NCBI RefSeq assembly: GCF_030684315.1
Contig: NC_081372.1
Coordinates: forward strand, 51,246,987-51,310,986
From: Stegostoma tigrinum
Taxonomy: Eukaryota
Direction: 5' to 3'
Length of the DNA: 64,000 nucleotides
In this document: in pieces, positions 10,471 to 63,327 of the stretch
Numbering within the stretch: position 1 is the first letter of the stretch
Layout: each line of letters begins with the position of its first letter
The notes under the pieces: generated by a model
What the model saw: the letters and a program-made list of their open reading frames with translations, nothing else
Told to the model about the DNA's origin: nothing
Databases searched by the model: none
Translations under genes and position numbers: made by a program

Positions 10471-13117
10471 TTATTGGACATTCTCCAACAACTTCGTCCA
10501 TTCTGTAAAGGGTGGAAGACATTTGATTGAAAGCAGACATAGTTTAAATACTCAATTATAAACCCACACAATATCGCTAATTTTTAAAAATTTGCACATA
10601 CCATCAAAGTCAAGTTTGCCATCACTGTTCTTGTCCCACTCCCTGATGAGTTCATGAACTTCCTCCTCTGTAACATGCTCCCCAGCAGCCATGATGGCAA
10701 TATGCAGCTCAGAACAATCGATGAAGCCGTCAGCATGGCTAGAGTCATCAAGAAAAGTATGAAAGCCCCCAATCCAGCAATATTATCTACCTTACCAAAA
10801 TAGAAATTGAGAAAAGATCATATCCATCTAATTTCACTTTCTTTCTGTCTGGAAATTTACATTTTTTAATCTCACAAAGAAGTCCAATTTAATCACTGGC
10901 GTACAACAAATCTAGATATCATGCACGAACACATGTGGAAATAGCTTCATAAACCTCACATTTGAACTCACCTGTTTCATCCAAAAATGATACAGTTCCC
11001 ACACAATGTCTCAAATTTCTCAAGACCTGAATTCAGTAGTGTGCCCTCTGCTCTGAAAGCAATTACAAGTCATTTGTCATTATCACCTTCGATTATGTTC
11101 AACTGGAAATGGCTTCCCTTTAATTCCAATGATAATATTGAATCACACTTTCTGTTCTTCTACAATTTTGCCCACGGGATGAGATTTGAAACTTTTTTCT
11201 GGGAGCATCAGCATGAGCCACTGGCTGTCTAGCCCAGAGACATTTCGACGATTTTTCCGTCTCCCTGAAGTCAAAACATGCTGTCTGTGCAAGTTGTCAA
11301 AATATCTATGAATTTGATATACATATTTGTTGTCACCAGCTGCCTGCAACAGTCGTAGACTCTCCAACTTTAAGGGCATTTAAATGGTCATTGGATAAAC
11401 ATATGGATGGTAATGGAATAGTGTAGGTTGGGTGGACTTCAGATTGGTTTCACAGGTCGGCGCAACATTGAAGACCGAATGGCCTGTGCTGCACTGTAAT
11501 GTTCTATGTTCTATATTCTTCGTAGAAGCGAAAGTAAACTCAATTGTTAATCTTTTCCTGAGGTGTATACCTAACAATTTCTAGGCTCATCCTCATAAAT
11601 CCTTGAAGCACAATCTCCCGTACCTCTTATACCCTTTTAATGAAATGATGGAAGGTACTGCGTGTGACATATATTGCAGATGAAGCAAATTTCAATCCAT
11701 GTTTGACAGTTGCTAGTTTTAGTGGAAATGTTTCTCGCACCAAATGTTTCTGTATTTCCACCTCAATTCAGGTTTGAAGAAATTGTTTTGGACCCAGACG
11801 CAAACACCGTTTACATGTCTCTAAAGATGGTGCTAAACACAGTGAGATTTTGTACTATTGTTCTAATTACAAGCTTCTGAAGCATTTTGTATAATGGATG
11901 TACTTCTTTTCTAAAATGGCTTCCTTACATTAATGTCTAAGACACCATAATCTCACCAAATCATTGGGCTGTGTTTTTTATTAGAAAGAGATGAGTGATG
12001 ATTAGTTTAATCTGAGGTTCACCAAGGGTCCTGAGTTCAGAGTTGAGAAGGAGAGTTACTGCTGGAATCCTCAGCTGGTGCAGGAAATAAACCCACACTG
12101 TTGGCTTTAGTCTGATTTGCAATCCAGCTGTCCAGGCAACTGAGCTCACCAGCCACCGACCCAATATTTAGGTTCAAGCACATATGCTTTTTTTTTGCTT
12201 TGCTAATCTTTGAGAAAGCTTTTTCATTTTTCAACACGTACATTGGAGAAATTACTGCCTCAAAATAGAATTTCTCCATGGGTCTACTTCCACCAAATTG
12301 GTCAAACATCAAACTCAATGATCAAAAAGACGAAATATTTCTGCCAAAGCTTCTTCGTACGTTCCTTTCTCCTCCTCTCTCATCTGCCTCGCCATAATCA
12401 ACTGGAACCTTTTATAGCCAATTGTGCCGATACCTAAATTAAGAGGTCACAGAAAATAAGATCTGCCGATTGTTAACCATGCACATTGGGAATGAAATGA
12501 TGTTTGAAAAGAAGAGAAAATGCTAATGCTTAAGCTCAATGTGAGTGTTATTCAGCACTGGTGCAATCTGAGATTTGATGAGCTTCCGGGAAAACCAAGA
12601 CATCAATTCTAAGTGAATTGAAGTTAGTGATTATGTACTCATTTGTGAAGATGTGAATTAAGTGAGATTTAGATTTAGATTCGACTATCATGTGTGATCA
12701 AGTACAGAATTACAAAGGTACAGTGAAAAATGTATGATGTTGTCATAGATAGCCCCATCTCAGGCACAAATGCACCCAGGTCCAAAATACTGAAGTACAA
12801 ATTAGTAAGAGAAAAAGAGTTAAAGCATGAAGCATTATCTTCTCATAAACAAACAGAAAATTAAAGGAGAAAGTTAATAGTTAACATTGCAGTCCGCCTT
12901 ACTGCAGTCTAGAGAGTAGAACAGCTATCTTACCTCCAGTATTTTTCTTACCTATGCGAGAAGGGATCATCAGGGAATTATCTTCACAGAGCAATACAAT
13001 AGCCAGCACAATTTGGTCTCTCCTGTAATTTGGGAAGACCAAACACACAGACTGGAAGACCATTTTGCTGAACGCTTCAGCACAGCTCACACGAATGCTC
13101 TCAGCTTTCAGTGACAT
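10471..13117 (-). pseudogene. TNNC2-like: U2: troponin C C-half copy, probable pseudogene (exon 4 donor lost)
   Basis: Exon A 13117-12952. Exon 4 12433-12319 has donor GT>TT and read-through hits TGA. Exon 5 10738-10602 is open (HADGFIDCSELHIAIMAAGEHVTEEEVHELIREWDKNSDGKLDFD). Exon 6 10502-10471 reads EWTKLLENVQ*. Confidence 0.8.
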
Positions 13118-15715: not shown

Positions 15716-15721
15716 TTTATT
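15716..15721 (-). terminator. Candidate polyadenylation signal for U3
   Basis: AATAAA on the minus strand about 280 nt after the stop, followed by U/GU-rich sequence. Also present at 10185, 26316, 29396, 34459 and 48162; mutated in the U4-type pseudogenes. Confidence 0.55.
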
Positions 15722-16001: not shown

Positions 16002-18833
16002 TTACTGGTCATTCTTCAACAACTTCGACCATTCTGTAAAGGGTGGAAGACATTTGATTTAAAGCAGACACAGTTTAAATACTCAATAATAAACCCACAC
16101 AATATCGCTAATTTTTAAAAATTTGCACATACCATCAAATTCAAGTTTGCCATCACTGTTCTTGTCCCACTCCCTGATGTGTTCATGAGCTTCCTCCTCT
16201 GCAACATGCTCCCCAGCTACCATGATGGCAATATGCAGCGCAGAACAATCGATGAAACCGTCAGCATTGCTAGAGTCATCAAGGAAAGTATGAATGTCCC
16301 CAATCCAGCAATGTTACCTACCATACCAAAATAGAAGTTGAGAAAAGATCATATCCATCTAATTTCACTTTCTTTCTGTCTGGAAGTTTACATTATTTAA
16401 TCTCATCAAGTAATCCAATTTAATCACAGGCGTACAACAAATCTAGACATCATGCACGAACATACGAGGAAATAGATTCATAAACCTCACATCTGAACTC
16501 ACCTTTTTCATCCAAAAATGATACAGTTCCCACACAATGTCTCAAATTTCTCAAGACCTGAATTCAATAGTGTGCCCTCTGCTCTGAAAGCAATTACAAA
16601 TAATTTGTCATTATCACCTTCGATTATGTTCAAATGGAAATGGCTTCCCTTTCATTCAAATGATAATATTGAATCACACTTTCTGCTCTTCCACAATTTT
16701 GTTCCTGACAGTTTAGTTTTCTGAAAATCTTCTGTTGATATTCTCTACTTATGTTCTCCATCGCGTTTTACGTGGATAAGTGTGTTGCTGACAACGACTG
16801 TATTGTTGTCCATGCCTAATTGCACTTGAATGGAGTTGCTTGTTCAGTAATTTCAGAGTGCAGTTACAAATCAGACAGCGTTCCACTGGTCTGGATATAT
16901 ATTCAGGCCAGCAAGGTAAGGATGGCAGATTGTCTTCCTTGAAGGAGACAAGTGAACCACATAGGTTTTCACAACAACCTCTCAGACTTTTCACTATCAT
17001 CAACGACATCAGTTTTATGCTGCAGATGTATTGATTGAGTTTTCTATTTCACTAGCTCACCGGATGAGATTTGAAAGTTTGTTCTTGGAGCATCAGCATG
17101 ATCCACTGGCTCGCTAGTCTGGGACATTTCCATTATGCTACTACCTCCCTGAAGTGAAAACATGCTGTCTATCCACATTTTCAAAACATCTGTGAGTATT
17201 GCAACTATCTATGGATCACCCTTTAGACTTTTTTGTTGAAGGGAAAATAGTCTCAACTGTTAATACTTTCCTGATGTGTGAAGCTGAGGATTTTTAGCCT
17301 CAACCTGGTCAATCCTCAAAGAACTGTCTCCAGGCAACTCTTATATCTTTCAGTATAAGATCATGAAAGGTGCACCATGTCACATGCAATGTAAATGAAA
17401 CAAATTTCCATACATGTTTGCCAGTTGCGAGTCCCGCTAGAAATGTTCTAGGAACAAATGTTTCCACACTTCTACCTCACTTTGGATATGAAGAAGTTAT
17501 ACTGAGGTGAAAACACAGACTCTTTTTTTTCTTCTCTATATAGATGGTGTTAAAGCAAGTGACATTAATGATTCTCATTATTATTTCATATTTTCAGCTT
17601 CTGAAGTATTTTGTATAATTGATATACTTGTTTGCTACAATGGTTTATTTACATGAAGCAAAAGGTAAATTGACCTTTGTGTCAACATATCAGGTGTCTG
17701 CTATTTCATTAGCGAGAAATGATTGGTGGTGACTTCGACCAGAGGGTCACTGTGACTGAGTTGAGTGTTGAGGGGAGTCATGCACGGTAACCTGAGGTGG
17801 TGTAGGAATTAAACCCACACTATTGTTTATGCTCTGCCTTGCAAACCAGCTAACCAGGCAACAGAGCTAATCGGCCCCGTACCCTACATTTCCTTGAAGC
17901 ACGGATGTTTTTCTGATTGCTTTGCTGATCTTTTAGAAACTTGTCTCTTTTTCAATACATACAACGGAGAATCAACAAACTCTAAATAGAATTGTTGCTC
18001 TATCATGTTTCTACCAGTCATGTAGAAGCTCAAACTCACCCATCAAATACATGAATGAATTTTGCGATGTCTTTATCAGACTTTCCTTTCACTTCTTCTC
18101 TCATCTGCCTCGCCATCGTCACCAAGAACTCTTCAAAATCAATGGTGCCGCTACCTAAGACCACACTCAGTTGTAAGCTCTGTCCATTGTTAACCATGAA
18201 TATTTGTGAACGAAACGATTTTTGAAGAGAAACTGCTCATGTTTTAGCTGCATGTTACCCTTTTTGAGACCAATTGCAATCTGAGATTTGACTATCTTTG
18301 GGACACCCAAGATATCAGTCAAATGTGAAATGGAGTAAACTGTTGCGTACTAAATCGTGAAGATATGAAATAATTTACAATTAGATGTAGAATTTTTTTA
18401 TCATGTGTACTCAAGTACAGTATTACAGGCGTACAGTGAAAATGTACAACATTGCCACGCATGTCCCATTTCTGGATCAAAGGTAGTTGCGCCCAAAAAA
18501 TGTCGGTACAAAATAGTAACTGTAAAAGAATTAAAAAGTTAAGCATTACCTTCAGATAGCAAGTAGAAAAATAAAGAATAAAGATCATAGTTAACATTAC
18601 AGTTCTTCTTAATTTAGTCTAGAAAGTAGAACAGCTTTTTTACCTCCAGTATTTTTCTTACCTGCTCCAGAAGGAATCGTCAAAGAAATAACTTCACAGA
18701 GTAAAATTACACACGACACAATTTGAATTCTCCTGTACTTTGGAACGATCAAACACACAAACTGGAAGACCATTTTGCCGAGCACTTCAACGCAGCTCGT
18801 AAGAATGTCCCTGTGCTTTCTTTGACGTGTCAT
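16002..18833 (-). CDS. TNNC2-like: U3: intact predicted 151-aa protein, novel hydrophobic N-terminus fused to the troponin C C-half (EF-hands 3 and 4)
   Basis: join(18833-18662, 18154-18040, 16269-16133, 16033-16002) is 456 nt, all GT-AG, with no internal stop. Exons 4-6 read GSGTIDFEEFLVTMARQMREEVKGKSDKDIAKFIHVFDG/NADGFIDCSALHIAIMVAGEHVAEEEAHEHIREWDKNSDGKLEFD/EWSKLLKNDQ*. Exons 4-6 are secure; use of exon A is an inference. Confidence 0.7.
16790..17150 (-). mobile_element. SacSINE1-like Deu-domain SINE in intron 4 (U3-U13; mostly deleted in U1 and U2)
   Basis: cagagtgcagtta...ggtctgga...ggccagcaaggtaaggatggcagattgtcttccttgaagga.a.aagtgaacca resembles the antisense Deu domain, with a tRNA-like head at the right end. 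Confidence 0.65.
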
Positions 18834-18912
18834 TTTAATTCACCATGATGCTCTCTGGCTGACATTGACTTGGCCTGCTGCAACAAGCTGTGCCTTGTCT
18901 TTCAATAAGGCA

Positions 18913-18919
18913 TTTTATA
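18913..18919 (-). promoter_or_regulatory. Candidate TATA box upstream of exon A (U3)
   Basis: gcTATAAAAtgc on the minus strand, 80-110 bp upstream of the exon A ATG. Conserved in the diverged U1 (8348-8354) and in the other copies that retain this region. Confidence 0.4.
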
Positions 18920-21037
18920 GCTGCATGGGCTCCAACTTTTCATTCCATTTCACAGAGTGCTACATTTTGTTTCCAAATCTTTCCTTTTGAATATTTGTTC
19001 AGTAAAGGTGCACACCTGCTTCAGGCACATATTGGCTTATTTGTTTGCTTTCTTGCCCTAAATCAATTTCCTTTGGCCCCAGAAGACTGACTCTTCTGTC
19101 ATCAAATTTCCCTGTCTTTCATTGCATCACAGATCTTTCTTTTGTACGAAACATGGCCGGGTGGAGAACTAAATTCACAGGCCTCTGAAATCTGCAAAAT
19201 TAAAGAATGAAGGCCCCCACCTAAAACCCAGCACAGGAAATGCTTTTGGAATTTTCATGATTCCATCACGCTGTGAGATTTCTTCACCTCCCCAGGCCAA
19301 CTTCCAGATTCTGTGAGTGCCTGCCTCGACGTAAGAATTTTCCTCCAAGCAGGCTGGTCTTGATATCTGTCCAGCACGTAGATAAATATATTGTGCAGTA
19401 CTATCACCTGGATGTACCTACGATTCGCGTGTGACTGTTTTGGATGAATGTCTTGAGCCACTGCCATCCATTTAGTGCAAGTCAGCTCACAATGTCTGCA
19501 TGGAGGGAGTACCAGGTACTTGATGCAAAGTCATGGTGTGAATGGAGATATAGTTCCAAGTCAGGAAGGTGAGTGGCTTGGAATGGAATGTGCAGGTGGT
19601 GGTGTTCCCATGTACTTGCTGCCATTCTACTTCCAGGTGGCAATGTTCATGGGATAAGCATATTTTTTCAACAGAACCTTGGTGAATTTCTGTGTTGCAT
19701 CTTGTATGTGGTGATGAATGTATTTTTAAACTACTTGATCATTGATTTCATTTTTGTGTTTCATACTTTAAATTGTGTGAGGCAATGCCATCTCATTTTG
19801 ACTCTAACTCTGAGGGTTGCACAGTAGTTCGCACTGCTGACTAACAGTGAGAGAGAGCTGGGTGCAATTCCACCCTTGGCTAATTGTCTGCGTGGAGTTT
19901 GCACATTCTCCCTGAATGTACATGGGTTTACTCTGGTTACTGCAGTTACTTCCTGTAGAACAAAGATGTGCATGTTAGGCGAACAAGCCATGCCAAATTG
20001 ACCATGGTATCTTGGGGAGGGTAGATTAGATGAATAAGCCATGGGAAATGCAGGGTTACAAGGATAGAGGAGAGTGAGGGATGCTCTTTGGAGGGTTGGT
20101 GTGGACTTGATGGACTAAGTAGCCTGTTTCCACACTGTTGGGATTCTATGATTAAACATAGTAGCACAATGGTTTACTCATAACAATCATTTCAGTGAAC
20201 TGTCACCAACTGCAGCTTGTTGTGCTATAGACTGTGCTGTGGTTCAGTTTGAATGATTCTTGTCTGTGAATTCAAATTTGTAGTTTTCTGGTCGGACCCT
20301 GAAGCTGCTGATTAATGGGCAGTGTAAGGCCATGGGAATGTTGCAGTTTCAGGTAATTTGTCTTTTGGATGACAGCCATCATCTATGGATCCTGGGATAC
20401 GATTTAAAAGAAGGGCTGGAGACGCAAAAATTTAGTCCACAAGCATCTGAAGAGTGGCTTGTGTACTGATGTGGAATTTGCTGTGTGCAGGTTGGTGACT
20501 GCGAATCCTTGATGAAATACCGAATACCCTTTCAAAATACTTCAATATTTAGAAGAACTGTCAAGATCTGCTGTGTTCATGAAAGATGTGCTAAATAAAG
20601 AAAATGGTTTTGCTGCCAATATATAGAAACTGATTTTTCATTGTGTAATTTAACATTGTTGCCTCCTGGAAATAGAGAATAAATATCCAGAGAATCCATG
20701 TCATTGACCAGGTGAAATGCAACAATAACTGTCTGGAAAAATCAATCAGAACTTTGCAAGGAAATTGTTGTGAATAAATTGTGCCGTATTCCATATGGAT
20801 CGCAAAATGCCGAAACTTGTCATTCATAGGAGATTGCTTCTTCCTCACAAAGAAAGAACTGCAGCAAATATGAAGCTCTTTGTTACATGTGTAGCTCCAG
20901 TCCTGTTGAACAGATTTTGAATTTTTTGCAATCATTGAGTGTATTCAGATGCCGAGGCTGTTGGCTGCAGAAGGGCGACAGCACAGAGTTCATTAAATTG
21001 TTGAATCATAATGGGTGGCTGACAGATGTTGACTTTT

Positions 21038-26485: not shown

Positions 26486-26748
26486 TTATTGGGTCTTCTC
26501 CATCATCTTCACCCATTCTGTAGACAGAGGAAGGTATATGATTCTTTTAAATACTCAATACTAAACCAATATAGTATCACTAATGAATTTGTTTTTATTA
26601 TTTGGACATACAACAAACATCAAGTTTCCCATCATTGTTCTTGTCCGATTGTTTCATGAATTCATGAATTTCCTCCTCTGCAAAATGTTTCCCAATAGCA
26701 TTGATGACAACATTCAGCTCATGACGATCGATGAAACCATCAGCATTG
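26486..26748 (-). pseudogene. TNNC2-like: U5: divergent copy with exons 5-6 only
   Basis: Exon 5 26748-26612 reads NADGFIDRHELNVVINAIGKHFAEEEIHEFMKQSDKNNDGKLDVC. The junction T|AA creates a stop. Exon 6 26517-26486 reads WVKMMEKTQ*. Exon 4 and exon A are removed by a deletion at about 28090. Confidence 0.85.
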
Positions 26749-29681
26749 CTGGAGTCAGCAAGAAAAGTATGAATGTCCCCAATCCAGTCAAGTTATCCTA
26801 CTGACCAAAATAGAAGTTGCTGCATGAGAAAAGATCAGGTCCATCCTGAGCTTCAGAAACCTCAGGTCTAAAGTCATCTGTTCAATCCGAGAAAGCTACA
26901 CTTCCCACACAATGTCTCAAATTACTCAAGTCCTGAACAGAATAGTGTGCCCTCTACTCTGAATGCAATTTCAAAGAATTTGTCTTTATAAACTTCTATT
27001 ACATTCAATCCATGCCTCGCTTCCCTTTAATTGGTATTGTAATCTTGAATACATTTTTGTTTCGACATTTTTGGTCATGGCAGTTTTTGTTTGAAGTATC
27101 TTCGGATGATTGTCTCTACTTATGCCCTCCGTAGCTTTTTACATGGATCTGACAAGGGCGGCATTGTTGTCCATGCCGAATTGCTCTCGAATGGACTTGC
27201 TCGTTGAGTAATTCCAGAATGCAGTTACACATCAGACACAATTCTAGTGAACTGGAGACACTTTCAGACCAGAGAGGTAAGGATGGTGGATTGTCTTCCA
27301 TAAAGGACTCAAGTGAATCAGAGAGGCTTTCACAATAATCAGTGGCAATTGTCACAGTCATCCTTAAGGTTATGCTACAGGTTTTTTGACTGAGATTTCT
27401 AATTCAACAGCTGACAGGATGCGATTTCAAAGCTTGCTCCTGGAGCATCAGCATGGGCCACTGGCTCCTTAGTCCAGTGATAGTTCCACAATCTTCCCAT
27501 CTCCCTGAAGTGAAAACATGCTGTCTGCCCATGTTGTCAAAATATCTATGAACTTTGCATCCGTATTTGTGTCACCACCTGCTTGCAACAGTAGTGGACT
27601 CACCAAATTTAAGGGCATTTAAATTGTCATTGGATATACATATGGATGATAATGGAATAGTGTAAGTTAGATGGGCTTCAGATTGGTTTCACAGATCAGC
27701 GCAACATCGAGGACCGAATGGCCTGTGCTGCACTGTAATGTTCTCTGTTCTATCTTCTTTATTGAAGCGAAAATAGACTCAACTGTCAATCTTTTCCCTC
27801 GGTGTATACCTGAGGATTTCTAGTCTCATCCTCATAAAACCTGGTAGCACGATCTCCAGTGCCACTTCAACCCTTTTTATGAAATGATGAAAGTAACTGC
27901 ATGTGACATATGATGCAGATGAAACAAATTTCAATACATGTTTGACAGTTGCTAGTTTTGCTGGAAACGTTTCTTGCACCAAATGTTTCTGTATTTCTAC
28001 CTCAATTCAGGTTTGAAGAAATTGTGTTGGACCCAGGCACAAACACCGTTTACATGTCTCTAAAGATGGTGCTAAACACGGTGAGATTTGTACTCTATGT
28101 ACTCAGTGTACTCTATTTTCTTTCCTTTTTAATATTTGTTTAGCTAGAGGCACACCTGGCTGAGGCTCATTTTGGTTTATTTGTTTACTTTCTTGCACCA
28201 CATCAATTTCCTTTGACCCCTGAGGACTGACTCGTCCGCCATCAGTTTTCCCTGTAACCCACTGCATCACAGATCTTTCTTTTGTACGAAAGATGGCCGG
28301 GTGGAGAACTAAATTGACAGGCCTCTGAAATGTGCAAGATTAAAGAATGAAGGCCCCCATTGAAAACCCAGCACAGGAAATGCTTTTGGAATTTTCATGT
28401 TTACATCACGCTACGAGATTTCTTCACCTCCCCAGACCAGGTCCCAGATTCTGTGAGTGCCTGCCTTGAGGTAAGAATTTTCCTCCAAGCAGTCTGGTCT
28501 TGAGCTGGGTGCAATTCCACCCTTGGCCAACTGTCTGCGTGGAATTTGCACATTCTCCCTGCGTGTACATGGGTTTACTCTGGCTACTGCATTTACTTCC
28601 CGTAGACCAAAGATGAGCCTGTTAGTGAACAAACCATGCTTAATTGCCCATGGTATCTTGGGGAGGGTAGACTAGATGAATAAGCCATGGGAAATGCATG
28701 GTTACAAGGATAGAGGAGAGTGAGGGATGCTCTTTGGAGGGTTGGTGTGGACTTGATGGACTAAGCAGACTGTTTCCACAATGTAAGGATTCTATGATAA
28801 AATGTAATGGTGCGATGGTTTACTCATAACAATCATTTCAGTGAACTGTCACCAACTGCAGCTTGTTGTGCTCTAGACTGTGCTGTGGTTCAGTGTGAAG
28901 CATTCGTGTGTGTGAATTCAAATTTGTAGTTTCCAATCTGGCATTGACAGCAGCTGATTAATGTGTAGTGAATGGCAGTGATAATGTTGAACTTTAAGAT
29001 AATTTGTCATTTGGATGACAGCCGTCATCTGTGGATCCTGGGATATGATTTGAAAGGAGAGCCGGAGAGGCCAATATTTATTCCTCATATTATCACAAAA
29101 GTGGCTTGTCTACGAATGTAGAATTTGCTGTGTGCAGGTTGTTGACGAAGTATTCTTCATGAAGTGTTGAATATCCTTTGAAAATACTTCAGTATTTATA
29201 CGACTATCGAGATATGCTGTGTTCATGAAAGATGTGCCATGTCAAGAAAATGGTTTTGCTGTCAATATATAGAAACTGCTTTTTCACTTTCTCATTTGAT
29301 TTTGTTGCCTGCTGGAAATAGAGGGTAAATATCCAGAGAATCCCTGTCACTCACAAGTGAAATGCAACAACCGGGTGGAAAAAATTGGCATTAACTTTAT
29401 TAGGAAATGGTTTTGAATAAATTGTGCAGCGTTCCAGGCTGAGAGGAAAATCACTGAACATTTCATACATATGCATTTGCTTCTTCCTCACAAAGAGAGA
29501 ATTAGAGCAGCTATGAAGCTCTTTGCTATATATGTAGCTCCAGTCCTGTCAATCAGATTTTGAATACTTTGCAATCATTGAGTGTATTTCAGATGTCTAG
29601 GCAGTTGATCGGAGAAGGGTGACGACACACAGGTCATGAAATTGTTGTATCACAGTTGGTTGCTGAGCGATGTTGGCTGTT

Positions 29682-31832
29682 TTACTGGTCATTCTTCAAC
29701 AACTTCGACCATGCTGTATGTGGTGGAAGACATTTGATTGAAAGCAGACATAGTTTAAATACTCAATAATAAACCCACACAATATTGATAATTTTTAAAA
29801 ATTTGCACATACCATCAAAGTCAAGTTTGCCATCACTGTTCTTGTCCCACTCCCTGATGAGTTCATGAACTTCCTCCTCTGTAACATGCTCCCCAGAAGT
29901 CTTGAATGTAAAATACAGCTCAGAACATTCGATGAAGCCGTCAGCATTGCTAGAGTCATCAAGAAAAGTATGAAAGTCCCCAATCCAGCAATGTTATCTA
30001 CCTTACCAAAATAGAAGTTGAGAAAAGATCATATCCATCTAATTTCACTTTCTTCTGTCTGGAAGTTTACATTATTTAATCTCATCAAGTAATCCAATTT
30101 AAAAACTGGCGTACAACAAATCGAGATATCATGCACAAACACATGTGGAAATAGCTTCATAAACCTCACATTTGAACTCACCTTTTTCATCCAAAAATGA
30201 TACATTTCCCACACAATGTCTCAAATTTCTCAAGACCTGAATTCAATAGTGTGCCCTCTGCTCTGAAAGCAATTACAAATAATTTGTCATTATCACCTTC
30301 GATTATGTTCAATTGGAAATGGCTTCCCTTTCATTCCAAAGATAAAATTGAATCACACTTTGTGCTCTTCCACAATTGTGTTCGTGACCGTTTTGTTTTC
30401 TGAAATCTTCTGTTGATATTCTCTACTTATGTTCTCCATCGCCTTTTACATGGATAAGTGTCTTGCTGACAACGACTGTATTGTTGTCCATGCCTAATTG
30501 CACTTGAATGGAGTTGTTTGTTCAGTAATTTCAGAGTGCAGTTACAAATCAGACAGTGTTCCACTGGTCTGGATATATATTCAGGCCAGCAAGGTAAGGA
30601 TGGCAGATTGTCTTCCTTGAAGGAGACAAGTGAACCACATAGGTTTTCACAACAACCTCTCAGACTTTTCACTATCATCAACGACATCAGTTTTATGCTG
30701 CAGATGTATTGATTGAGTTTTCTATTTCACTAGCTCACCGGATGAGATTTGAAAGTTTGTTCTTGGAGCATCAGCAGGATCCACTGGCTCACTCGTCTGG
30801 GACATTTCCATTATGCTACTACCTCCCTGAAGTGAAAACATGCTGTCTATCCACATTTTCAAAACATCTGTGAGTATTGCAACTATCTAATGGATCACCG
30901 TTTAGTCTTCTTTGTTGAAGGGAAAATAGTCTCAACTGTTAATACTTTCCTGATGTGTGAAGCTGAGGATTTTTAGCCTCAACCTGGTAAATCCTCAAAG
31001 AACTGTCTCCAGGCGACTCTTATATCTTTTCGTATAAGATCATGAAAGGTGCACCATGTCACATGCAATGTAAATGAAACAAATTTCAACACATGTTTGC
31101 CAGTTGCGAGTCCCGCTAGAAATGTTCTAGGAACAAATGTTTCCACACTTCTACCTCACTTTGGATATGACGAAGTTATATTGAGCTGAAAACACAGACT
31201 CTTTTTCACTTCTCTAGATAGATGGTGTTAAAGCGAGTGACATTAATGATTCTCATTATTATTTCATCTTTTCAGCTTCTGAAGTATTTTGTATAATTGA
31301 TATACTTATTTGCTACAATGGTTTATTTACATGAACCAAAAGGCAAAATCACCTTTGTGTCAACATATCAGGTGGCTGCTACTTCATTAGAGAGAGATGA
31401 TTGGTGGTGACTTCGACCAGAGGGTCACTGTGACTGAGTTGAGTGTTGAGGGGAGTCATTCACGGTAACCTGAGGTGGTGTAGGAATTAAACCCACACTA
31501 TTGTTTATGCTCTCCCTTGCAAAGTAGCTAAACAGGCAACTTAGCTAGTCGGCCCCGTACCCTACATTTCCTTGAAGCAGGGATGTTTTTCTGATTGCTT
31601 TGCTGATCTTTTCGGAACTTGTCACTTTTTCAATACATACAATGGAGAATCAACAAACTCAAAATAGAATTGCTGCGCTATCATGTTTATATCAGTCATG
31701 TAGAATCTCAAACTCACCTATCAAATACACGAAAGAATTCTGCGATGTCTTTGTCAGACTTTCCTTTCACTTCTTCTCTCATCTGCCTCGCCAACGTCAC
31801 CAAGAACTCTTCAAAATCAATGGTGCCGCGAC
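29682..31832 (-). CDS. TNNC2-like: U6: intact troponin C-like exons 4-6 (5' exon uncertain)
   Basis: join(31832-31718, 29949-29813, 29713-29682), GT-AG and open: RGTIDFEEFLVTLARQMREEVKGKSDKDIAEFFRVFDS/NADGFIECSELYFTFKTSGEHVTEEEVHELIREWDKNSDGKLDFD/AWSKLLKNDQ*. The exon A donor is AT; candidate exon B is 32892-32717. Confidence 0.7.
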
Positions 31833-34744
31833 CTAAGACCACACTCAGTTGTAAGCTCTGTCCATTGTTAAACATGAATATTTGTGAACCAAACAATTTT
31901 TGAAGAGAAACTGCAAATGTTTTAGCTGCATGTTACCCTTTTTGAGACCAATTGCAATCTGAGATTTGACTATCTTTGGGACACCCAAGATATCAGTCAA
32001 ACGTGAAATGGAGAAAACTGTTGCGTACTAAATCGTGAAGATATGAAATAATTTACAATTAGATTTAGAATTTTTTTATCATGTGTACTCAAGTACAGTA
32101 TTACAAGAGTACAGTGAAAATGTACAACATTGCCATGCGTGTCCCATTTCTGGATCAAACGTAGTTGTGCCCAAAAAATGTAGGTACAAATTAGTAACTG
32201 AAAAAGAGTTAAAAAGTTAAGCATTACCTTCAGATAGCAAGTAGAAAAATAAAGAATAAAGGTCATAGTTAACATTACAGATCTTCTTAATTTAGTCTAG
32301 AAAGTAGAACAGCTTTTTAACCTCCAGTATTTTTCTTATCTGCTCCAGAAGGAATCGTCGAAGAAATAACTTCACAGAGTAAAATTAGACACAACACAAT
32401 TTGGATTCTGCTGTACATTGGAACGATCAAACGCACAAACTGGAAGACCATTTTGCCGAACACTTCAACGCAGCTGGTAAGAATGTCCCTGTGCTTTCTT
32501 TGACGTGTCACTTAAATTGCCCATGATGCTCTCTGGCTGACATTGACTTGGCCTGCTGCACTGTTCCAAGGAAGGTCAAGGTAACAAACTGTGCCTTGTC
32601 TTTCAATAAGGCATTTTATAGCTGCATGGGTTCCAACTGTTCATTCCATTTCACAGAGTGCTCCATCTTGTTTCCAAATCTTTCCTTCTGAATGTTTTTT
32701 CAGTAAAGGTGCACACCTGCTTCAGGCACATTTTGGTTTATTTGTTTGCTTTCTTGCCCCAAATCAATTTGCTTTGGCCCCAGAAGACCGACTCTTCTGT
32801 CATCAATTTTGCCTGTCTTCCATTGCATCACAGATCTTTCTTTTGCACGAAAGATGGCCGGGTGGAGAACTAAAATGTCAGGCCTCTGAAATCTGCAAGA
32901 TGAAAGAATGAAGGACCCCATTGAAAGCCCAGCACAGGAAATGCGTTTGGAATTTTCATGATTCCATCACCCTGTGAGACTTCTTCACCTCCCCGTGCCA
33001 ACTTCCAGATTCTGTGAGTGCCTGCCTCGAGATAAGAAATTTCCTCCAAGCAGTCTGGTTTTGATATCTGTCCAGCACGTAGATAAATATATAGCAAGGT
33101 ACGATCACCTGGACGTGCCTACGATTCACGTGTGACTGTTTTGGTTGAATATCTTGAGCCACTGCCATCCAATTAGTGCAAGTCAGCTCACAATGTCTGC
33201 ATGGCGGGAGTACCGGGTATGTGAAACAAAGTCATGGTGAATTTGGAGATCTAATTCCAAGTCAGGATGGTGAGTGTCATGGAGGGGAATGTGCAGGTGG
33301 TGGTGTTCCCATGTACTTGCTGCCGTTCTACTTCCAGGTGGTAATGTTCATGGGATAAGCATATTTTTTCGCCAGAACCTTGGTGAATTTCTGTGTTGCA
33401 TCTTGTAAATGGTGCTGAATGTATTGTTGCACTACTTGATCCTTGATTTCATTTTTGTGTCTCATACTTGAAATTGTGTGAGGCAATTGCCATCTCATTT
33501 TGTCTATAACACTAACTGTTGCAGAGTGGATCAGTGGTTGGTACTGCTTCCTCACAGTGACAGAGAGCTGGGTGCAATTCCACCCTTGGCCAACTGTCTG
33601 CGTGGAATTTGCACATTCTCCCTGCGTGTACATGGGTTTGCTCTGGCTACTGCATTTCCTTCCCGTAGACCAAAGATGAGCCTGTTAGTGAACAAACCAT
33701 GCTTAATTGCCCATGGTATCTTGGGGAGGGTAGACTAGATGAATAAGCCATGGGAGATGCATGGTTACAAGGATAGAGGAGAGTGAGGGATGCTCTTTGG
33801 AGGGTTGGTGTGGACTTGATGGACTAAGTAGACTGTTTCCACAATGTAAGGATTCTATGATAAAATGTAATGGTGCAATGGTTTACTCATAACAATCATT
33901 TCAGTGAACTGTCACCAACTGCAGCTTGTTGTGCTCTAGACTGTGCTGTGATTCAGAGTGAAGCATTCTTGTGTGTGAATTCAAATTTGTAGTTTCCAAT
34001 CTGACACTGACAGCAGCTGATTAATGTGCAGTGAATGGCAGTGATAATGTTGCACTTTAAGATAATTTGTCATTTGGATGACAGCCGTCATCTGTGGATC
34101 CTGGGATATGATTTGAAAGGAGAGCTGGAGAGGCCAATATTTATTCTTCATAATATCACAAAAGTGGCTTATCTACGAATGTAGAATTTGCTGTGTGCAG
34201 GTTGTTGACGAAGTATTCTTCATGAAGTGTTGAATACCCTTTGAAAATACTTCACTATTTATATGACTATCGAGATATGCTGTGTTCATTAAAGATGTGC
34301 CATGTCAAGAAAATGTTTTTGCTGCCAATATATAGAAACTGCTTTTTCACTTTCTCATTTGATTTTGTTGCCTGCTGGAAATAGAGGATAAATATCCAGA
34401 GAATCCCTGTCACTCACAAGTGAAACGCAACAACTGGGTGGAAAAAATTGGCATTAACTTTATTAGGAAATGGTTTTGAATAAATTGTGCAGCGTTCCAG
34501 GCTGAGAGGAAAATCACTGAGCGTTTCATACATATGCGATTGCTTCTTCCTCACAAAGAGAGAATTACAGCAGCTATGAAGCTCTTTGCTATATATGTAC
34601 CTCCAGTCCTGTCAATCAGATTTTGAATTCTTTGCAATCATTGAGTGTATTTCAGATGTCTAGGCAGTTGATCGGAGAAGGGTGACGACACACAGGTCAT
34701 GAAATTGTTGTATCACAGTGGGTTGCTGAGGGATGTTGGCTGTT

Positions 34745-37576
34745 TTACTGGTCATTCTTCAACAACTTTGACCATTCTGTAAAGGGTGGAAGACATTTGA
34801 TTGAAAGCAGACATAGTTTAAATACTCAGTAATAAACCCACACAATATCGCTAATTTTTAAACATTTGCACATACCATCCAAGTCAAGTTTGCCATCAGT
34901 GTTCTTGTCCCACTCCCTGATGAGTTCATGAATTTCCTCCTCTGTAACATGCTCCCCAGCAGCCATGATGGCAATATGCAGCTCAGAACATTCGATGAAG
35001 CCGTCAGCATGGCTAGAGTCATCAAGAAAAGTATGAAAGTCCCCAATCCAGCAATGTTATCTACCTTACCAAAATAGAAGTTGAGAAAAGATCATATCCA
35101 TCTAATTTCACTTTCTTTCTGTCTGGAAGTTTACATTATTTAATCTCATCAGGTAATCCAATTTAAAAACTGGCTTATAACAAATCTAGATGTCATGCAC
35201 GAACACATGTGGAAATAGCTTCATAAACCTCACACTTGAACTCACCTTTTTCATCCAAAAATGATACAGTTCGCACACAATGTCTCAAATTTCTCAAGAC
35301 CTGAATTCAATAGTGTGCCCTCTGCTCTGAAAGCAATTACAAATAATTTGACATTATCACCTTGAATTAAGTTCAATTGGTAATGGCTTCCCTTTCATTC
35401 AAATGATAATATTGAATCACACTTTGTGCTCTTCCACAATTTTGTTCGTGACAGTTTTGTTTTCTGAAAATCTTCTGTTGATATTCTCTACTTATGTTCT
35501 CCATCGCGTTTTACGTGGATAAGTGTGTTGCTGACAACGACTGCATTGTTGTCCATGCCTAATTGCACTTGAATGGAGTTGTTTGTTCAGTAATTTCAGA
35601 GTGCAGTTACAAATCAGACAGCGTTCCACTGGTCTGGATATATATTCAGGCCAGCAAGGTAAGGATGGCAGATTGTCTTCCTTGAAGGAGACAAGTGAAC
35701 CACATAGGTTTTCACAACAACCTCTCAGACTTTTCACTATCATCAACGACATCAGTTTTATGCTGCAGATGTATTGATTGAGTTTTCTATTTCACTAGCT
35801 CACCGGATGAGATTTGAAAGTTTGTTCTTGGAGCATCAGCATGATCCACTGGCTCGCTAGTCTGAGACATTTCCATTATGCTAGTACCTCCCTGAAGTGA
35901 AAACATGCTGTCTATCCACATTTTCAAAACATCTGTGAGTATTGCAACTATCTATGGATCACCCTTTAGACTTTTTTGTTGAAGGGAAAATAGTCTCAAC
36001 TGTTAATACTTTCCTGATGTGTGAAGCTGAGGATTTTTAGCCTCAACCTGGTAAATCCTCAAAGAACTGTCTCCAGGCAATTCTTATATCTTTCAGTATA
36101 AGATCATGAAAGGTGCACCATGTCACATGCAATGTAAATGAAACAAATTTCCATACATGTTTGCCAGTTGCGAGTCCTGCTAGAAGTGTTCTAGGAACAA
36201 ATGTTTCCACACTTCTACCTCACTTTGGAGATGAAGAAGTTATACTGAGGTGAAAACACAGACTCTTTTTTTTCTTCTCTATATAGATGGTGTTAAAGCA
36301 AGTGACATTAATGATTCTCATTATTATTTCATATTTTCAGCTTCTGAAGTATTTTGTATAATTGATATACTTGTTTGCTACAATGGTTTATTTACATGAA
36401 GCAAAAGGTAAATTGACCTTTGTGTCAACATATCAGGTGGCTGCTATTTCATTAGCGAGAAATGATTGGTGGTGACTTCGACCAGAGGGTCACTGTGACT
36501 GAGTTGAGTGTTGAGGGGAGTCATGCACGGTAACCTGAGGTGGTGTAGGAATTAAACCCACACTATTGTTTATGCTCTGCCTTGCAAACCAGCTAACCAG
36601 GCAACAGAGCTAATCGGCCCCGTACCCTACATTTCCTTGAAGCACGGATGTTTTTCTGATTGCTTTGCTGATCTTTTAGAAACTTGTCTCTTTTTCAATA
36701 CATACAACGGAGAATCAACAAACTCTAAATAGAATTGTTGCTCTATCATGTTTCTACCAGTCATGTAGAAGCTCAAACTCACCCATCAAATACATGAATG
36801 AATTTTGCGATGTCTTTATCAGACTTTCCTTTCACTTCTTCTCTCATCTGCCTCGCCATCGTCACCAAGAACTCTTCAAAATCAATGGTGCCGCTACCTA
36901 AGACCACACTCAGTTGTAAGCTCTGTCCATTGTTAAACATGAATATTTGTGAACGAAACGATTTTTGAAGAGAAACTGCTCATGTTTTAGCTGCATGTTA
37001 CCCTTTTTGAGACCAATTGCAATCTGAGATTTGACTATCTTTGGGACACCCAAGATATCAGTCAAATGTGAAATGGAGTAAACTGTTGCGTACTAAATCG
37101 TGAAGATATGAAATAATTTACAATTAGATGTAGAATTTTTTTATCATGTGTACTCAAGTACAGTATTACAGGCGTACAGTGAAAATGTACAACATTGCCA
37201 CGCATGTCCCATTTCTGGATCAAAGGTAGTTGCGCCCAAAAAATGTCGGTACAAAATAGTAACTGTAAAAGAATTAAAAAGTTAAGCATTACCTTCAGAT
37301 AGCAAGTAGAAAAATAAAGAATAAAGATCATAGTTAACATTACAGTTCTTCTTAATTTAGTCTAGAAAGTAGAACAGCTTTTTTACCTCCAGTATTTTTC
37401 TTACCTGCTCCAGAAGGAATCGTCAAAGAAATAACTTCACAGAGTAAAATTACACACGACACAATTTGAATTCTCCTGTACTTTGGAACGATCAAACACA
37501 CAAACTGGAAGACCATTTTGCCGAGCACTTCAACGCAGCTCGTAAGAATGTCCCTGTGCTTTCTTTGACGTGTCAT
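34745..37576 (-). CDS. TNNC2-like: U7: intact predicted 151-aa protein, exon A plus troponin C C-half
   Basis: join(37576-37405, 36897-36783, 35012-34876, 34776-34745), all GT-AG and open. Exon 5 reads HADGFIECSELHIAIMAAGEHVTEEEIHELIREWDKNTDGKLDLD. Confidence 0.7.
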
Positions 37577-45251: not shown

Positions 45252-45514
45252 TTATTGGGTCTTCTCCATCATCTTCACCCATTCTGTAGACAGAGGAAGG
45301 TATATGATTCTTTTAAATACTCAATACTAAACCAATATAGTATCACTAATGAATTTGTTTTTATTATTTGGACATACAACAAACATCAAGTTTCCCATCA
45401 TTGTTCTTGTCCGATTGTTTCATGAATTCATGAATTTCCTCCTCTGCAAAATGTTTCCCAATAGCATTGATGACAACATTCAGCTCATGACGATCGATGA
45501 AACCATCAGCATTG
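45252..45514 (-). pseudogene. TNNC2-like: U9: U5-type copy with exons 5-6 only
   Basis: Exon 5 45514-45378 and exon 6 45283-45252 match U5, with the same deletion junction at about 46860. Confidence 0.85.
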
Positions 45515-48447
45515 CTGGAGTCAGCAAGAAAAGTATGAATGTCCCCAATCCAGTCAAGTTATCCTACTGACCAAAATAGAAGTTGCTGCATGAGAAAAGA
45601 TCAGGTCCATCCTGAGCTTCAGAAACCTCAGGTCTAAAGTCATCTGTTCAATCCGAGAAAGCTACACTTCCCACACAATGTCTCAAATTACTCAAGTCCT
45701 GAACAGAATAGTGTGCCCTCTACTCTGAATGCAATTTCAAAGAATTTGTCTTTATAAACTTCTATTACATTCAATCCATGCCTCGCTTCCCTTTAATTGG
45801 TATTGTAATCTTGAATACATTTTTGTTTCGACATTTTTGGTCATGGCAGTTTTTGTTTGAAGTATCTTCGGATGATTGTCTCTACTTATGCCCTCCGTAG
45901 CTTTTTACATGGATCTGACAAGGGCGGCATTGTTGTCCATGCCGAATTGCTCTCGAATGGACTTGCTCGTTGAGTAATTCCAGAATGCAGTTACACATCA
46001 GACACAATTCTAGTGAACTGGAGACACTTTCAGACCAGAGAGGTAAGGATGGTGGATTGTCTTCCATAAAGGACTCAAGTGAATCAGAGAGGCTTTCACA
46101 ATAATCAGTGGCAATTGTCACAGTCATCCTTAAGGTTATGCTACAGGTTTTTTGACTGAGATTTCTAATTCAACAGCTGACAGGATGCGATTTCAAAGCT
46201 TGCTCCTGGAGCATCAGCATGGGCCACTGGCTCCTTAGTCCAGTGATAGTTCCACAATCTTCCCATCTCCCTGAAGTGAAAACATGCTGTCTGCCCATGT
46301 TGTCAAAATATCTATGAACTTTGCATCCGTATTTGTGTCACCACCTGCTTGCAACAGTAGTGGACTCACCAAATTTAAGGGCATTTAAATTGTCATTGGA
46401 TATACATATGGATGATAATGGAATAGTGTAAGTTAGATGGGCTTCAGATTGGTTTCACAGATCAGCGCAACATCGAGGACCGAATGGCCTGTGCTGCACT
46501 GTAATGTTCTCTGTTCTATCTTCTTTATTGAAGCGAAAATAGACTCAACTGTCAATCTTTTCCCTCGGTGTATACCTGAGGATTTCTAGTCTCATCCTCA
46601 TAAAACCTGGTAGCACGATCTCCAGTGCCACTTCAACCCTTTTTATGAAATGATGAAAGTAACTGCATGTGACATATGATGCAGATGAAACAAATTTCAA
46701 TACATGTTTGACAGTTGCTAGTTTTGCTGGAAACGTTTCTTGCACCAAATGTTTCTGTATTTCTACCTCAATTCAGGTTTGAAGAAATTGTGTTGGACCC
46801 AGGCACAAACACCGTTTACATGTCTCTAAAGATGGTGCTAAACACGGTGAGATTTGTACTCTATGTACTCAGTGTACTCTATTTTCTTTCCTTTTTAATA
46901 TTTGTTTAGCTAGAGGCACACCTGGCTGAGGCTCATTTTGGTTTATTTGTTTACTTTCTTGCACCACATCAATTTCCTTTGACCCCTGAGGACTGACTCG
47001 TCCGCCATCAGTTTTCCCTGTAACCCACTGCATCACAGATCTTTCTTTTGTACGAAAGATGGCCGGGTGGAGAACTAAATTGACAGGCCTCTGAAATGTG
47101 CAAGATTAAAGAATGAAGGCCCCCATTGAAAACCCAGCACAGGAAATGCTTTTGGAATTTTCATGTTTACATCACGCTACGAGATTTCTTCACCTCCCCA
47201 GACCAAGTCCCAGATTCTGTGAGTGCCTGCCTTGAGGTAAGAATTTTCCTCCAAGCAGTCTGGTCTTGAGCTGGGTGCAATTCCACCCTTGGCCAACTGT
47301 CTGCGTGGAATTTGCACATTCTCCCTGCGTGTACATGGGTTTACTCTGGCTACTGCATTTACTTCCCGTAGACCAAAGATGAGCCTGTTAGTGAACAAAC
47401 CATGCTTAATTGCCCATGGTATCTTGGGGAGGGTAGACTAGATGAATAAGCCATGGGAAATGCATGGTTACAAGGATAGAGGAGAGTGAGGGATGCTCTT
47501 TGGAGGGTTGGTGTGGACTTGATGGACTATGTAGACTGTTTCCACAATGTAAGGATTCTATGATAAAATGTAATGGTGCGATGGTTTACTCATAACAATC
47601 ATTTCAGTGAACTGTCACCAAGTGCAGCTTGTTGTGCTCTAGACTGTGCTGTGATTCAGTGTGAAGCATTCGTGTGTGTGAATTCAAATTTGTAGTTTCC
47701 AATCTGACACTGACAGCAGCTGATTAATGTGCAGTGAATGGCAGTGATAATGTTGAACTTTAAGATAATTTGTCATTTGGATGACAGCCGTCATCTGTGG
47801 ATCCTGGGATATGATTTGAAAGGAGAGCCGGAGAGGCCAATATTTATTCCTCATATTATCACAAAAGTGGCTTGTCTACGAATGTAGAATTTGCTGTGTG
47901 CAGGTTGTTGACGAAGTATTCTTCATGAAGTGTTGAATATCCTTTGAAAATACTTCAGTATTTATACGACTATCGAGATATGCTGTGTTCATGAAAGATG
48001 TGCCATGTCAAGAAAATGGTTTTGCTGTCAATATATAGAAACTGCTTTTTCACTTTCTCATTTGATTTTGTTGCCTGCTGGAAATAGAGGGTAAATATCC
48101 AGAGAATCCCTGTCACTCACAAGTGAAATGCAACAACCGGGTGGAAAAAATTGGCATTAACTTTATTAGGAAATGGTTTTGAATAAATTGTGCAGCGTTC
48201 CAGGCTGAGAGGAAAATCACTGAGCGTTTCATACATATGCGATTGCTTCTTCCTCACAAAGAGAGAATTACAGCAGCTATGAAGCTCTTTGCTATATATG
48301 TACCTCCAGTCCTGTCAATCAGATTTTGAATTCTTTGCAATCATTGAGTGTATTTCAGATGTCTAGGCAGTTGATCGGAGAAGGGTGACGACACACAGGT
48401 CATGAAATTGTTGTATCACAGTGGGTTGCTGAGGGATGTTGGCTGTT

Positions 48448-50604
48448 TTACTGGTCATTCTTCAACAACTTTGACCATTCTGTAAAGGGTGGAAGACATT
48501 TGATTGAAAGCAGACATAGTTTAAATACTCAATAATAAACCCACACAATATTGATAATTTTTAAAAATTTGCACATACCATCAAATTCAAGTTTGCCATC
48601 ACTGTTCTTGTCCCACTCCCTGATGAGTTCATGAACTTCCTCCTCTGTAACATGCTCCCCAGAAGTCTTGAATGTAAAATACAGCTCAGAACATTCGATG
48701 AAGCCGTCAGCATTGCTAGAGTCATCAAGAAAAGTATGAAAGTCCCCAATCCAGCAATGTTATCTACCTTACCAAAATAGAAGTTGAGAAAAGATCATAT
48801 CCATCTAATTTCACTTTCTTTCTGTCTGGAAGTTTACATTATTTAATCTCATCAAGTAATCCAATTTAAAAACTGGCGTACAACAAATCTAGATATCATG
48901 CACAAACACATGTGGAAATAGCTTCATAAACCTCACATTTGAACTCACCTTTTTCATCCAAAAATGATACATTTCCCACACAATGTCTCAAATTTCTCAA
49001 GACCTGAATTCAATAGTGTGCCCTCTGCTCTGAAAGCAATTACAAATAATTTGTCATTATCACCTTCGATTATGTTCAATTGGAAATGGCTTCCCTTTCA
49101 TTCCAAAGATAAAATTGAATCACACTTTCTGCTCTTCCACAATTGTGTTCGTGACCGTTTTGTTTTCTGAAAATCTTCTGTTGATATTCTCTACTTATGT
49201 TCTCCATCGCCTTTTACATGGATAAGTGTCTTGCTGACAACGACTGTATTGTTGTCCATGCCTAATTGCACTTGAATGGAGTTGCTTGTTCAGTAATTTC
49301 AGAGTGCAGTTACAAATCAGACAGCGTTCCACTGGTCTGGATATATATTCAGGCCAGCAAGGTAAGGATGGCAGATTGTCTTCCTTGAAGGAGACAAGTG
49401 AACCACATAGGTTTTCACAACAACCACTCAGACTTTTCACTATCATCAACGACATCAGTTTTATGCTGCAGATGTATTGATTGAGTTTTCTATTTCACTA
49501 GCTCACCGGATGAGATTTGAAAGTTTGTTCTTGGAGCATCAGCAGGATCCACTGGCTCACTCGTCTGGGACATTTCCATTATGCTACTGTCTCCCTGACG
49601 TGTAAACATGCTGTCTATCCACATTTTCAAAACATCTGTGAGTATTGCAACTATCTATGGATCACTGTTTAGACTTCTTTGTTGAAGGGAAAATAGTCTC
49701 AACTGTTAATACTTTCCTGATGTGTGAAGCTGAGGATTTTTAGTCTCAATCTGGTCAATCCTCAAAGAACTGTCTCCAGGCAACTCTTATATCTTTTCGT
49801 ATAAGATCATGAAAGGTGCACCATGTCACATGCAATGTAAATGAAACAAATTTCCATACATTTTTGCCAGTTGCGAGTCCCGCTAGAAATGTTCTAGGAA
49901 CAAATGTTTCCACAATTCGACCTCACTTTGGATATGAAGAAGTTATATTGAGCTGAAAACACAGACTCTTTTTTTTTCTTCTCCAGATAGATGGTGTTAA
50001 AGCGAGTGACATTAATGATTCTCATTATTATTTCATATTTTCAGCTTCTGAAGTATTTTGTATAATTGATATACGTGCTTGCTACTTTGGTTTATTTACA
50101 TGAAGCAAAAGCTAAATTCACCTTTGTGTCAACATATCAGGTGGCTGCTATTTCATCAGAGAGAGATGATTGGTGGTGACTTCGACCAGAGGGTCACTGT
50201 GACTGAGTTGAGTGTTGAGGGGAGTCATTCACGGTAACCTGAGGTGGTGTAGGAATTAAACCCACACTATTGTTTATGCTCTCCCTTGCAAACCAGCTAA
50301 CCAGGCAACTGGGCTAATCAGCCCCGTACCCTACATTTCCTTGAAGCAGGGATGTTTTTCTGATTGCTTTGCTGATCTTTTAGAAACTTGTCACTTTTTC
50401 AATACATACAACGGAGAATCAACAAACACAAAATAGAATTGCTGCGCTATCATGTTTACACCAGTCATGTAGAAGCTTAAACTCACCCATCAAATACACG
50501 AAACGATTCTGCGATGTCTTTGTCAGACTTTCCTTTCACTTCTTCTCTCATCAGCCTCCCCGCCATCTTCACCAAGAACTCTTCAAAATCAATGGTGCCG
50601 CTAC
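48448..50604 (-). CDS. TNNC2-like: U10: intact troponin C-like exons 4-6 with two near-canonical EF loops (5' exon uncertain)
   Basis: join(50604-50487, 48715-48579, 48479-48448). Exon 4 is 118 nt (in-frame +3): SGTIDFEEFLVKMAGRLMREEVKGKSDKDIAESFRVFDG. Loops are DGNADGFIECSE and DKNSDGKLEFDE. Candidate exon B 51665-51490 has a GTGAG donor. Confidence 0.72.
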
Positions 50605-63064: not shown

Positions 63065-63327
63065 TTATTGGGTCTTCTCCATCATCTTCACCCATTCTGT
63101 AGACAGAGGAAGGTATATGATTCTTTTAAATACTCAATACTAAACCAATATAGTATCACTAATGAATTTGTTTTTATTATTTGGACATACAACAAACATC
63201 AAGTTTCCCATCATTGTTCTTGTCCGATTGTTTCATGAATTCATGAATTTCCTCCTCTGCAAAATGTTTCCCAATAGCATTGATGACAACATTCAGCTCA
63301 TGACGATCGATGAAACCATCAGCATTG
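63065..63327 (-). pseudogene. TNNC2-like: U13: U5-type copy, exons 5-6 (unit cut by the window end)
   Basis: Exon 5 63327-63191 and exon 6 63096-63065 match U5 and U9. Confidence 0.83.

Follow-up and report, generated by a model that had tools for sequence, protein, structure and literature searches.

An inversion-built probable first exon and a predicted signal peptide in a tandem family of fast troponin C derivatives of carpet sharks

The window, a stretch of 64,000 nucleotides from the zebra shark, Stegostoma tigrinum (C23:51246987-51310986; NC_081372.1), is a tandem array of partial copies of TNNC2, the gene for fast troponin C. Units of about 5 kb sit inside 18.8-kb repeats that are 98-99% identical to each other. 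A genome search with the DNA of the candidate new first exon of these copies, here called exon A, returned 34 matches, every one of them on C23 at 51.22-51.85 Mb, and 833 kb of C23 around the array were taken for a survey of copies. The parent gene lies at C23:51817180-51822872 with exons 2-6 intact; exon 1 was looked for at this locus and not found, and the paralog on C13 is presumably the cardiac type. Units without exon 3 number 26, of which 14 are intact and 12 broken.

The units for which coordinates are given here lie on the minus strand of the window. In the unit designated U3, an ATG-initiated frame upstream of exon 4 (exon A, 18833-18662; 172 nt) runs in phase 1 to CAG/GTAAG, as originally predicted, and is followed by copies of TNNC2 exon 4 (18154-18040; end of the EF-II loop, helix D, linker and helix E), exon 5 (16269-16133; EF sites III and IV) and exon 6 (16033-16002; with the stop codon). 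Joined at canonical splice sites these exons give the expected stop-free coding sequence of 456 nt (151 aa), and a candidate poly(A) signal, AATAAA, lies 280 nt past the stop (15716-15721). U3 thus retains a TATA box, both donors of exon A (see below), all splice sites and the poly(A) signal; its introns are ~70-77% identical to those of the parent, and exons 4-6 are equal to the parental ones in size and phase. The frame through exons A, 4, 5 and 6 is likewise intact in U7 (34745-37516), which RefSeq XP_059508633 models without exon A. U10 (48448-51284) is intact and corresponds to XP_059508634 (158 aa, first ATG, downstream donor), and U6 (29686-32451) is intact via the downstream donor; XP_059508620 combines exons A, 4 and 5 of U6 with the last exon of an orphan unit (26517-26486). 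In U2, a diverged type (10471-13063), exon A is open and the exon 4 donor reads TT, and RefSeq XP model P0017 takes the upstream exon A donor (GTAAG, equivalent to 18661). The count of open exon A copies in the window was confirmed at nine of ten, the exception being U11 at 55430, which has a TAA.

Two ATGs and two donors have to be distinguished in exon A. The second ATG (18773; MVFQ, in the context AAAATGG) is present in 29 of 30 copies, and the coding stretch from it to the conserved donor (18773-18644, phase 1), which would encode the predicted signal peptide and a linker, is 130 nt long in 27 of 28 minus-strand copies. From the first ATG runs a 20-codon N-terminal extension (18833-18774) that is open only in the recent clade. 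In older copies this ATG starts a 4-codon upstream ORF, U6-type copies read GTG in its place, and in U1/U2 the extension begins at another ATG, following a 1-nt deletion. We rejected the first ATG as the start for the family on these grounds, and by its retention across copies the conserved start is the second ATG. The donor at 18662/18661 is GT in only six of 28 minus-strand copies, which had been raised as a caveat for U4-, U6- and U10-type copies. This caveat falls away, because all 28 copies have GT at a second in-frame donor, situated 18 nt further on (18644), making the loss of the upstream one immaterial. The candidate promoter, TATAAAA (18919-18913), is located 86 nt upstream of the first ATG in U3 and 109 nt in most other copies, within the predicted range. 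Relative to the second ATG it lies at -146 to -169 in 25 of 30 copies, is displaced in one, an intact copy at 51449574 (to -624), and is absent in four, all of them broken genes. The out-of-frame upstream ATGs noted previously are two in U3, opening upstream ORFs of 11 codons from 18865 and 3 codons from 18846 (together 18865-18832).

The RefSeq proteins of S. tigrinum are identical letter for letter to exons of the array. Exon A is present in 12 of the 15 that we retrieved, as well as in one Chiloscyllium protein, and among the 12, the second ATG is the start of ten, and the downstream donor is likewise chosen in ten; the upstream donor appears in two models, both of copies that have GTAAG there. 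The remaining three S. tigrinum models, that of U7 among them, lack exon A and start at an intronic ATG. Most exon-A models measure 131-138 aa from the second ATG, so that the 151 aa originally proposed do not describe the family form, and none of the 15 retrieved proteins equals the U3 product, the exact 151-aa version of which we regard as doubtful. As a rule, NCBI calls isoforms only with transcript support, which is an indirect indication, and LOC125461311, a paralog and not U3 itself, has two isoforms (X1 and X2) that both include exon A, X2 skipping exon 5. Four sequencing runs had even, DNA-like coverage of introns and no exon-exon joint among the joints listed, and give no evidence either way on expression.

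Comparison with the parent locus places the origin of exon A at an inversion. Window positions 19145-18719 match parent TNNC2 intron 2 in inverted orientation (70%; C23:51818196-51818631), and positions 18719-18625 match, in forward orientation, a more downstream stretch of this intron (75%; 51819511-51819605). The full order, forward intron 2, inverted segment and then forward sequence from 51819511, is visible in two old copies, and the inversion breakpoints are common to all copies examined. The inverted segment (18719-19145, plus strand) is an inverted copy of an element in parent intron 2, a decayed Penelope-like fragment with reverse transcriptase (RT) and GIY-YIG affinities that lies antisense to the gene. 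In tblastx the fragment aligns with the C-terminal portion of long ORFs nearby, one of which scores, short of the curated cut-offs in both cases, on Pfam RVT_1 (E 8e-5) and GIY-YIG (E 0.001); we take the RT plus GIY-YIG architecture to be that of Penelope. Pfam searches of the decayed element itself in three frames, with X at stops (6 queries), gave nothing meaningful and one chance match (E 0.19). A genome-wide search with the intron-2 element found its best matches in the cluster of TNNC2 copies, and within the 833 kb the matches of at least 230 nt numbered 28, all of them exon-A copies. We rejected the idea that exon A came from a separate transposon insertion, since the best element matches are exon-A copies and the breakpoints are shared.

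Judging from these homologies, exon A is a chimera in which the antisense strand of the retroelement contributes the TATA box, the ATG and codons 1-18 (counted from the second ATG), and the forward intron (18719-18625) contributes codons 19-43 and both donors (GTAAG at 18661, GTAAAA at 18643). The suggestion of a transposable-element origin was therefore borne out for codons 1-18 and the candidate promoter, which are homologous to the Penelope-like fragment. The same comparison bears on whether exon A might be an internal exon, or exon 4 be fed by another, unrecognised upstream exon. Against such an arrangement, no copy across the 833 kb carries parent exon 2 or non-repeat sequence from upstream of the breakpoint, the TATA box and ATG are conserved, and 13 of 13 exon-A-bearing models (S. 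tigrinum and Chiloscyllium) have exon A as their first exon; we consider it highly improbable.

The Chiloscyllium protein provides information on the age of exon A and on the sequence in which the changes took place. When 1.84 billion representatives were searched, four proteins matched: XP_043542666 of Chiloscyllium plagiosum, two paralogs from S. tigrinum and a tick repeat protein. The tick protein (P0013, E 1e-4) was taken as a chance match, and a profile search of 3709 candidates, which is weak and dependent on annotation, produced 11 hits and no further species. XP_043542666, a single and partial model of 128 aa, begins with a 43-residue exon A that spans the breakpoint and is joined via the downstream donor to exon 3 and then to exon 4, so retaining both EF loops of the N-lobe (four-EF form). 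Its exon A is 56-70% identical to the zebra-shark copies. The presence of exon A in Chiloscyllium indicates that the inversion is older than the split of the two shark families, at ~100 Myr. In the zebra shark, four old copies still have exon 3, all decayed. The lost exon measures 144 nt and is phase-symmetric, and the deletion junction is recognisable in U3 at 18261-18239, where parent position 51819720 is joined to 51820094. From this comparison, exon A is seen to have first replaced only exons 1-2, exon 3 being deleted later and separately, and the earlier view that exon A itself replaced the N-lobe has to be revised on this point.

We found the reading frames to be retained beyond neutral expectation. 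Among 14 non-redundant units the flanking non-coding DNA has 45 indels over 1324 nt, a rate at which 4.4 would be expected in exon A; it has none (P=0.012). When neutral evolution was simulated on the tree of non-coding sequence, exon A suffered 8.6-10.3 disruptions, compared with the single one observed (P<=0.001), and on average 0.06-0.54 units stayed fully intact, compared with nine of 14 in the real data. In each of the three settings, none of 3000 runs attained nine; mosaicism of the units and gene conversion weaken these tree-based tests and simulations. Of the five oldest copies with decayed EF exons, four have a broken exon A. In a comparison of the parent with seven intact copies, two of ten Ca-ligand columns are variable versus 43 of 57 other C-lobe columns (P=0.0014). 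Retention of hydrophobicity is marginal by simulation (P=0.012-0.071). Exon A has an estimated dN/dS of ~0.8 and the EF exons one of ~0.9, neither different from 1 (log-likelihood gains ~0.6), and purifying selection by this measure is not supported. We conclude from frame retention that the exon A reading frame is under selection, which dN/dS does not show. Frames and ligands that are kept as the rest changes freely would fit birth-and-death evolution of a functional family, and we consider it likely, with good confidence, that the family is functional.

The same data have to be weighed against the view that the array consists of unprocessed pseudogenes or recently relaxed genes, with exon A an accidental frame and the RefSeq models ab initio extensions. 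A dN/dS indistinguishable from 1, the 12 broken units and the three RefSeq models that begin at intronic ATGs are all compatible with such decay, and the antisense strand of a coding region may contain few stops. Nevertheless, frames, splice sites and Ca ligands are retained far beyond neutral expectation, exon A is open in Chiloscyllium too, and the TATA box is lost only in broken copies, making this explanation rather unlikely for the family. It is likelier for U3 taken alone, where it is a real possibility falling somewhat short of even.

With functional genes as the preferred reading, the conserved part of exon A resembles a signal peptide. By hydropathy and hand-applied rules it presents a basic n-region, a hydrophobic h-region and a polar c-region with small residues at -3 and -1. 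The core, residues 18-26 (18722-18696), has a Kyte-Doolittle (KD) mean of 3.2-3.8 in 13 of 13 open copies scored. It is flanked by a charge of +1 to +3 on the N-terminal side and of -1 or -2 on the C-terminal side, and position 27 is acidic (D or E) in 26 of 27 open or nearly open minus-strand copies. Val28 and Ser30 are kept, in agreement with the -3/-1 rule, and mark a predicted signal-peptidase site V28-x-S30 (S30 codon 18686-18684). Membrane orientation is set by flank charges (the positive-inside rule), and the EF-hands are thus expected to face the lumen, whether the segment is cleaved or not. The unbroken hydrophobic core comprises only 9-11 residues, and a core this short favours cleavage. 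In the ESM Atlas, residues 1-45 gave no usable match and a whole paralog matched only generic EF-hand clusters; one paralog scores on Pfam SPARC_Ca_bdg, which we read as generic EF-pair likeness.

Alternatively, the genes may be expressed and the segment stay uncleaved as a type II signal anchor, particularly in the 151-aa form, which would tether the EF-hands in the ER/Golgi lumen or at the cell surface. The best 19-residue KD window is compatible with an anchor as well, at 1.8-2.2 in most copies and 2.14 in U3, and the N-flank is positive, with further basic residues added by the 20-residue extension of the U3 type. That basic extension is not conserved, however, and the short core, the acidic residue at 27 and the kept V28/S30 also speak against an anchor, which we judge unlikely. 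The original prediction envisaged a membrane-associated or S-acylated Ca sensor, which we read as a cytosolic EF-hand protein attached to membranes by a hydrophobic, S-acylated N-terminus; the three Cys in or near the hydrophobic stretch of U3 and the invariance of C26 speak for it. Cys-richness does not hold up as a family trait: of the three Cys after the second ATG, C26 alone, which closes the hydrophobic core, is invariant, and C7 and C21 vary among intact copies, evidence against S-acylation being what is conserved. The charge asymmetry favours a C-terminus-out orientation, an N-terminal Gly for myristoylation is absent, and U3 has only one canonical EF loop. Import into the ER is what the basic flank, the 9-residue core, the acidic flank and the V-x-S site suggest, and a membrane-attached cytosolic sensor appears very unlikely.

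The remainder of the protein is an acidic C-lobe; the residues encoded by exons 4-6 carry a net charge of about -11. In U3 site IV is canonical, and an Ala (codon 16241-16239) stands in place of the Glu at position 12 of site III. Loss of the position-12 Glu normally abolishes Ca binding at an EF site, and on this account U3, a young copy with a damaged site III, may be a weakened or dying member. Older paralogs at 51449574 and 51461709 have kept both sites III and IV, and several copies have His at EF position 3. No ER-retention motif was seen in the copies. Signal-peptide-like features ahead of this lobe tip us slightly towards classical secretion for the family.

Taken together, these observations give the following history. 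In a duplicate beginning in intron 2, a dead Penelope-like fragment was flipped and joined to downstream intron. The antisense strand of the fragment offers a TATAAAA, a strong-context ATG and an 18-codon n-region, and the intron a phase-1 GT donor, the hydrophobic core and a V-x-S site; these elements are present in the sequence and would have been put to use as promoter, start and signal peptide. According to the gene models, exon A joins exon 3 in the four-EF form of Chiloscyllium and, once the phase-symmetric exon 3 had been deleted, exon 4 in the one-lobe form of the zebra shark. The one-lobe form then expanded to its present 26 copies, keeping frames and Ca ligands as other residues changed fast. 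Import via SRP, followed by cleavage behind Ser30, would free an acidic product of ~100 residues made up of helix D and the C-lobe. Saturated with Ca at extracellular concentrations, it would stay permanently Ca-bound and more likely act as a binding or buffering module than as a switch or sensor.

Our preferred explanation, in which we place a little more belief than doubt, is therefore that the U3 family is a carpet-shark offshoot of fast troponin C whose inversion-built probable first exon encodes a likely cleavable signal peptide, and whose members are small secreted Ca-loaded EF-hand proteins and not regulators of the thin filament. The prediction of a recruited phase-1 first exon on troponin C exons, giving an EF-hand protein off the thin filament, is in this respect supported by the exon-A-bearing S. 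tigrinum and Chiloscyllium proteins and by frame retention. We are evenly divided on the fuller statement that these are secreted troponin C derivatives of carpet sharks in which one inversion gave promoter, start codon and signal peptide, the regulatory lobe was lost, and the genes multiplied and diversified fast in the manner of an immune, reproductive or skin-secretion protein.

Troponin C is a conserved, intracellular, low-copy textbook protein. A secreted, tandemly amplified and fast-evolving offshoot, if true, would be unexpected to muscle and EF-hand specialists. The locus would also hold a complete record of the de novo birth of a signal peptide, comprising an intact parent, the donor retroelement fragment and a breakpoint inside the exon, and the ancestral four-EF form (in the bamboo shark and in decayed copies here) can be compared with the derived one-lobe form. 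Relocalisation by de novo gain of a targeting signal would be directly testable in sharks. Our literature searches found no description of a shark troponin C-derived family, and troponin has no mention in the available parts of the whale-shark (PMC8455134) and zebra-shark (PMC10620051) genome papers, the supplements of which could list the family among expanded genes.

The copies are tied to TNNC2 by descent, as seen in exon structure and sequence, and have largely kept its EF III and IV loops; among solved structures the Chiloscyllium form is closest to troponin C (E 1.5e-43, versus 3e-33 for calmodulin). They differ from TNNC2 in having a new exon in place of exons 1-2, in the absence of exon 3 from the zebra-shark form, in their 26 tandem copies and fast residue change, and in the signal-like N-terminus. 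A functional troponin C has an N-helix and a regulatory N-lobe (EF I and II), which U3-type copies, without exons 2 and 3, do not have. Secretory EF-hand proteins such as the CREC group (calumenin, reticulocalbin, Cab45), MCFD2 and the SPARC EC domain have a signal peptide followed by acidic EF pairs. The layout of the shark proteins is similar and their ancestry different, the copies deriving from TNNC2 with a localisation that is predicted only. Membrane-targeted Ca sensors (NCS/recoverin, CaBP7/8 and plant CBL) combine EF-hands with a hydrophobic or lipidatable terminus, whereas the shark copies have one lobe and import-like charges, and lack both a Gly2 and a conserved acylatable Cys on the cytosolic side, C26 being the only invariant one. 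As to mode of origin, comparable cases are retroelement exonization and chimeric new genes with antisense TE-derived exons, and a precedent is a Schistosoma japonicum family which, as far as the available part of its description goes, shares a new signal sequence, its promoter and signal module having arisen via repeat-associated rearrangement and spread by duplication (PMC3434034). The shark family resembles it in having a repeat-linked new signal module that spreads by duplication, and differs from that account in that the module is a composite formed at an inversion breakpoint, on a highly conserved sarcomeric gene, and in two shark genera.

Among the copies of exon A, the probable new first exon of the array units, the intact paralog at NC_081372.1:51449574-51450230 (RefSeq model P0015) carries an insertion of ~460 nt that separates exon A from the TATA motif, suggesting that the promoter of this paralog may be disabled or replaced. 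In the minus-strand unit U3, a 23-nt deletion relative to U7 and the other copies is found within the presumed 5' UTR (window 18865-18887, minus strand) and is confined to this unit. Penelope-like copies with long open frames are present in the region at 51400206-51402326 (707 amino acids) and 51793736-51795235 (500 amino acids); these are young and belong to a subfamily distinct from, and more recent than, the source of exon A. Another decayed fragment, at 51195965-51196537, shares the inversion breakpoint of the exon-A copies.

Downstream of exon A, the U2 exon 4 donor (window 12319, minus strand) reads TT in the assembly, and the RefSeq model of this unit, P0017, continues past it and contains an Arg absent from the simple-junction product. 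Intron 4 of U3 includes an 81-nt segment (window 16503-16583, minus strand) that has a good acceptor as well as GTGAGT as its donor. The parent TNNC2 contains a homologue of this segment, as does each of the 13 units in the window that carry exon 5. This segment is a possible poison exon, since its inclusion would bring in a stop. Orphan exon 5-6 units, lacking exons A and 4, are located on the minus strand at window 26486-26968, 45252-45734 and 63065-63547. RefSeq models XP_059508620 and XP_059508622 take their last exon from such units, passing over the exon 6 that belongs to the unit upstream. An orphan exon 5 in inverted orientation (51415596-51415732) lies within the upstream region of the array paralog LOC125461311.

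A second, more canonical TNNC2 copy did not turn up in the sequence searches. The C-lobe of the parent TNNC2 (51822595-51822731) appears to be further from typical vertebrate TNNC2 than is its N-lobe.
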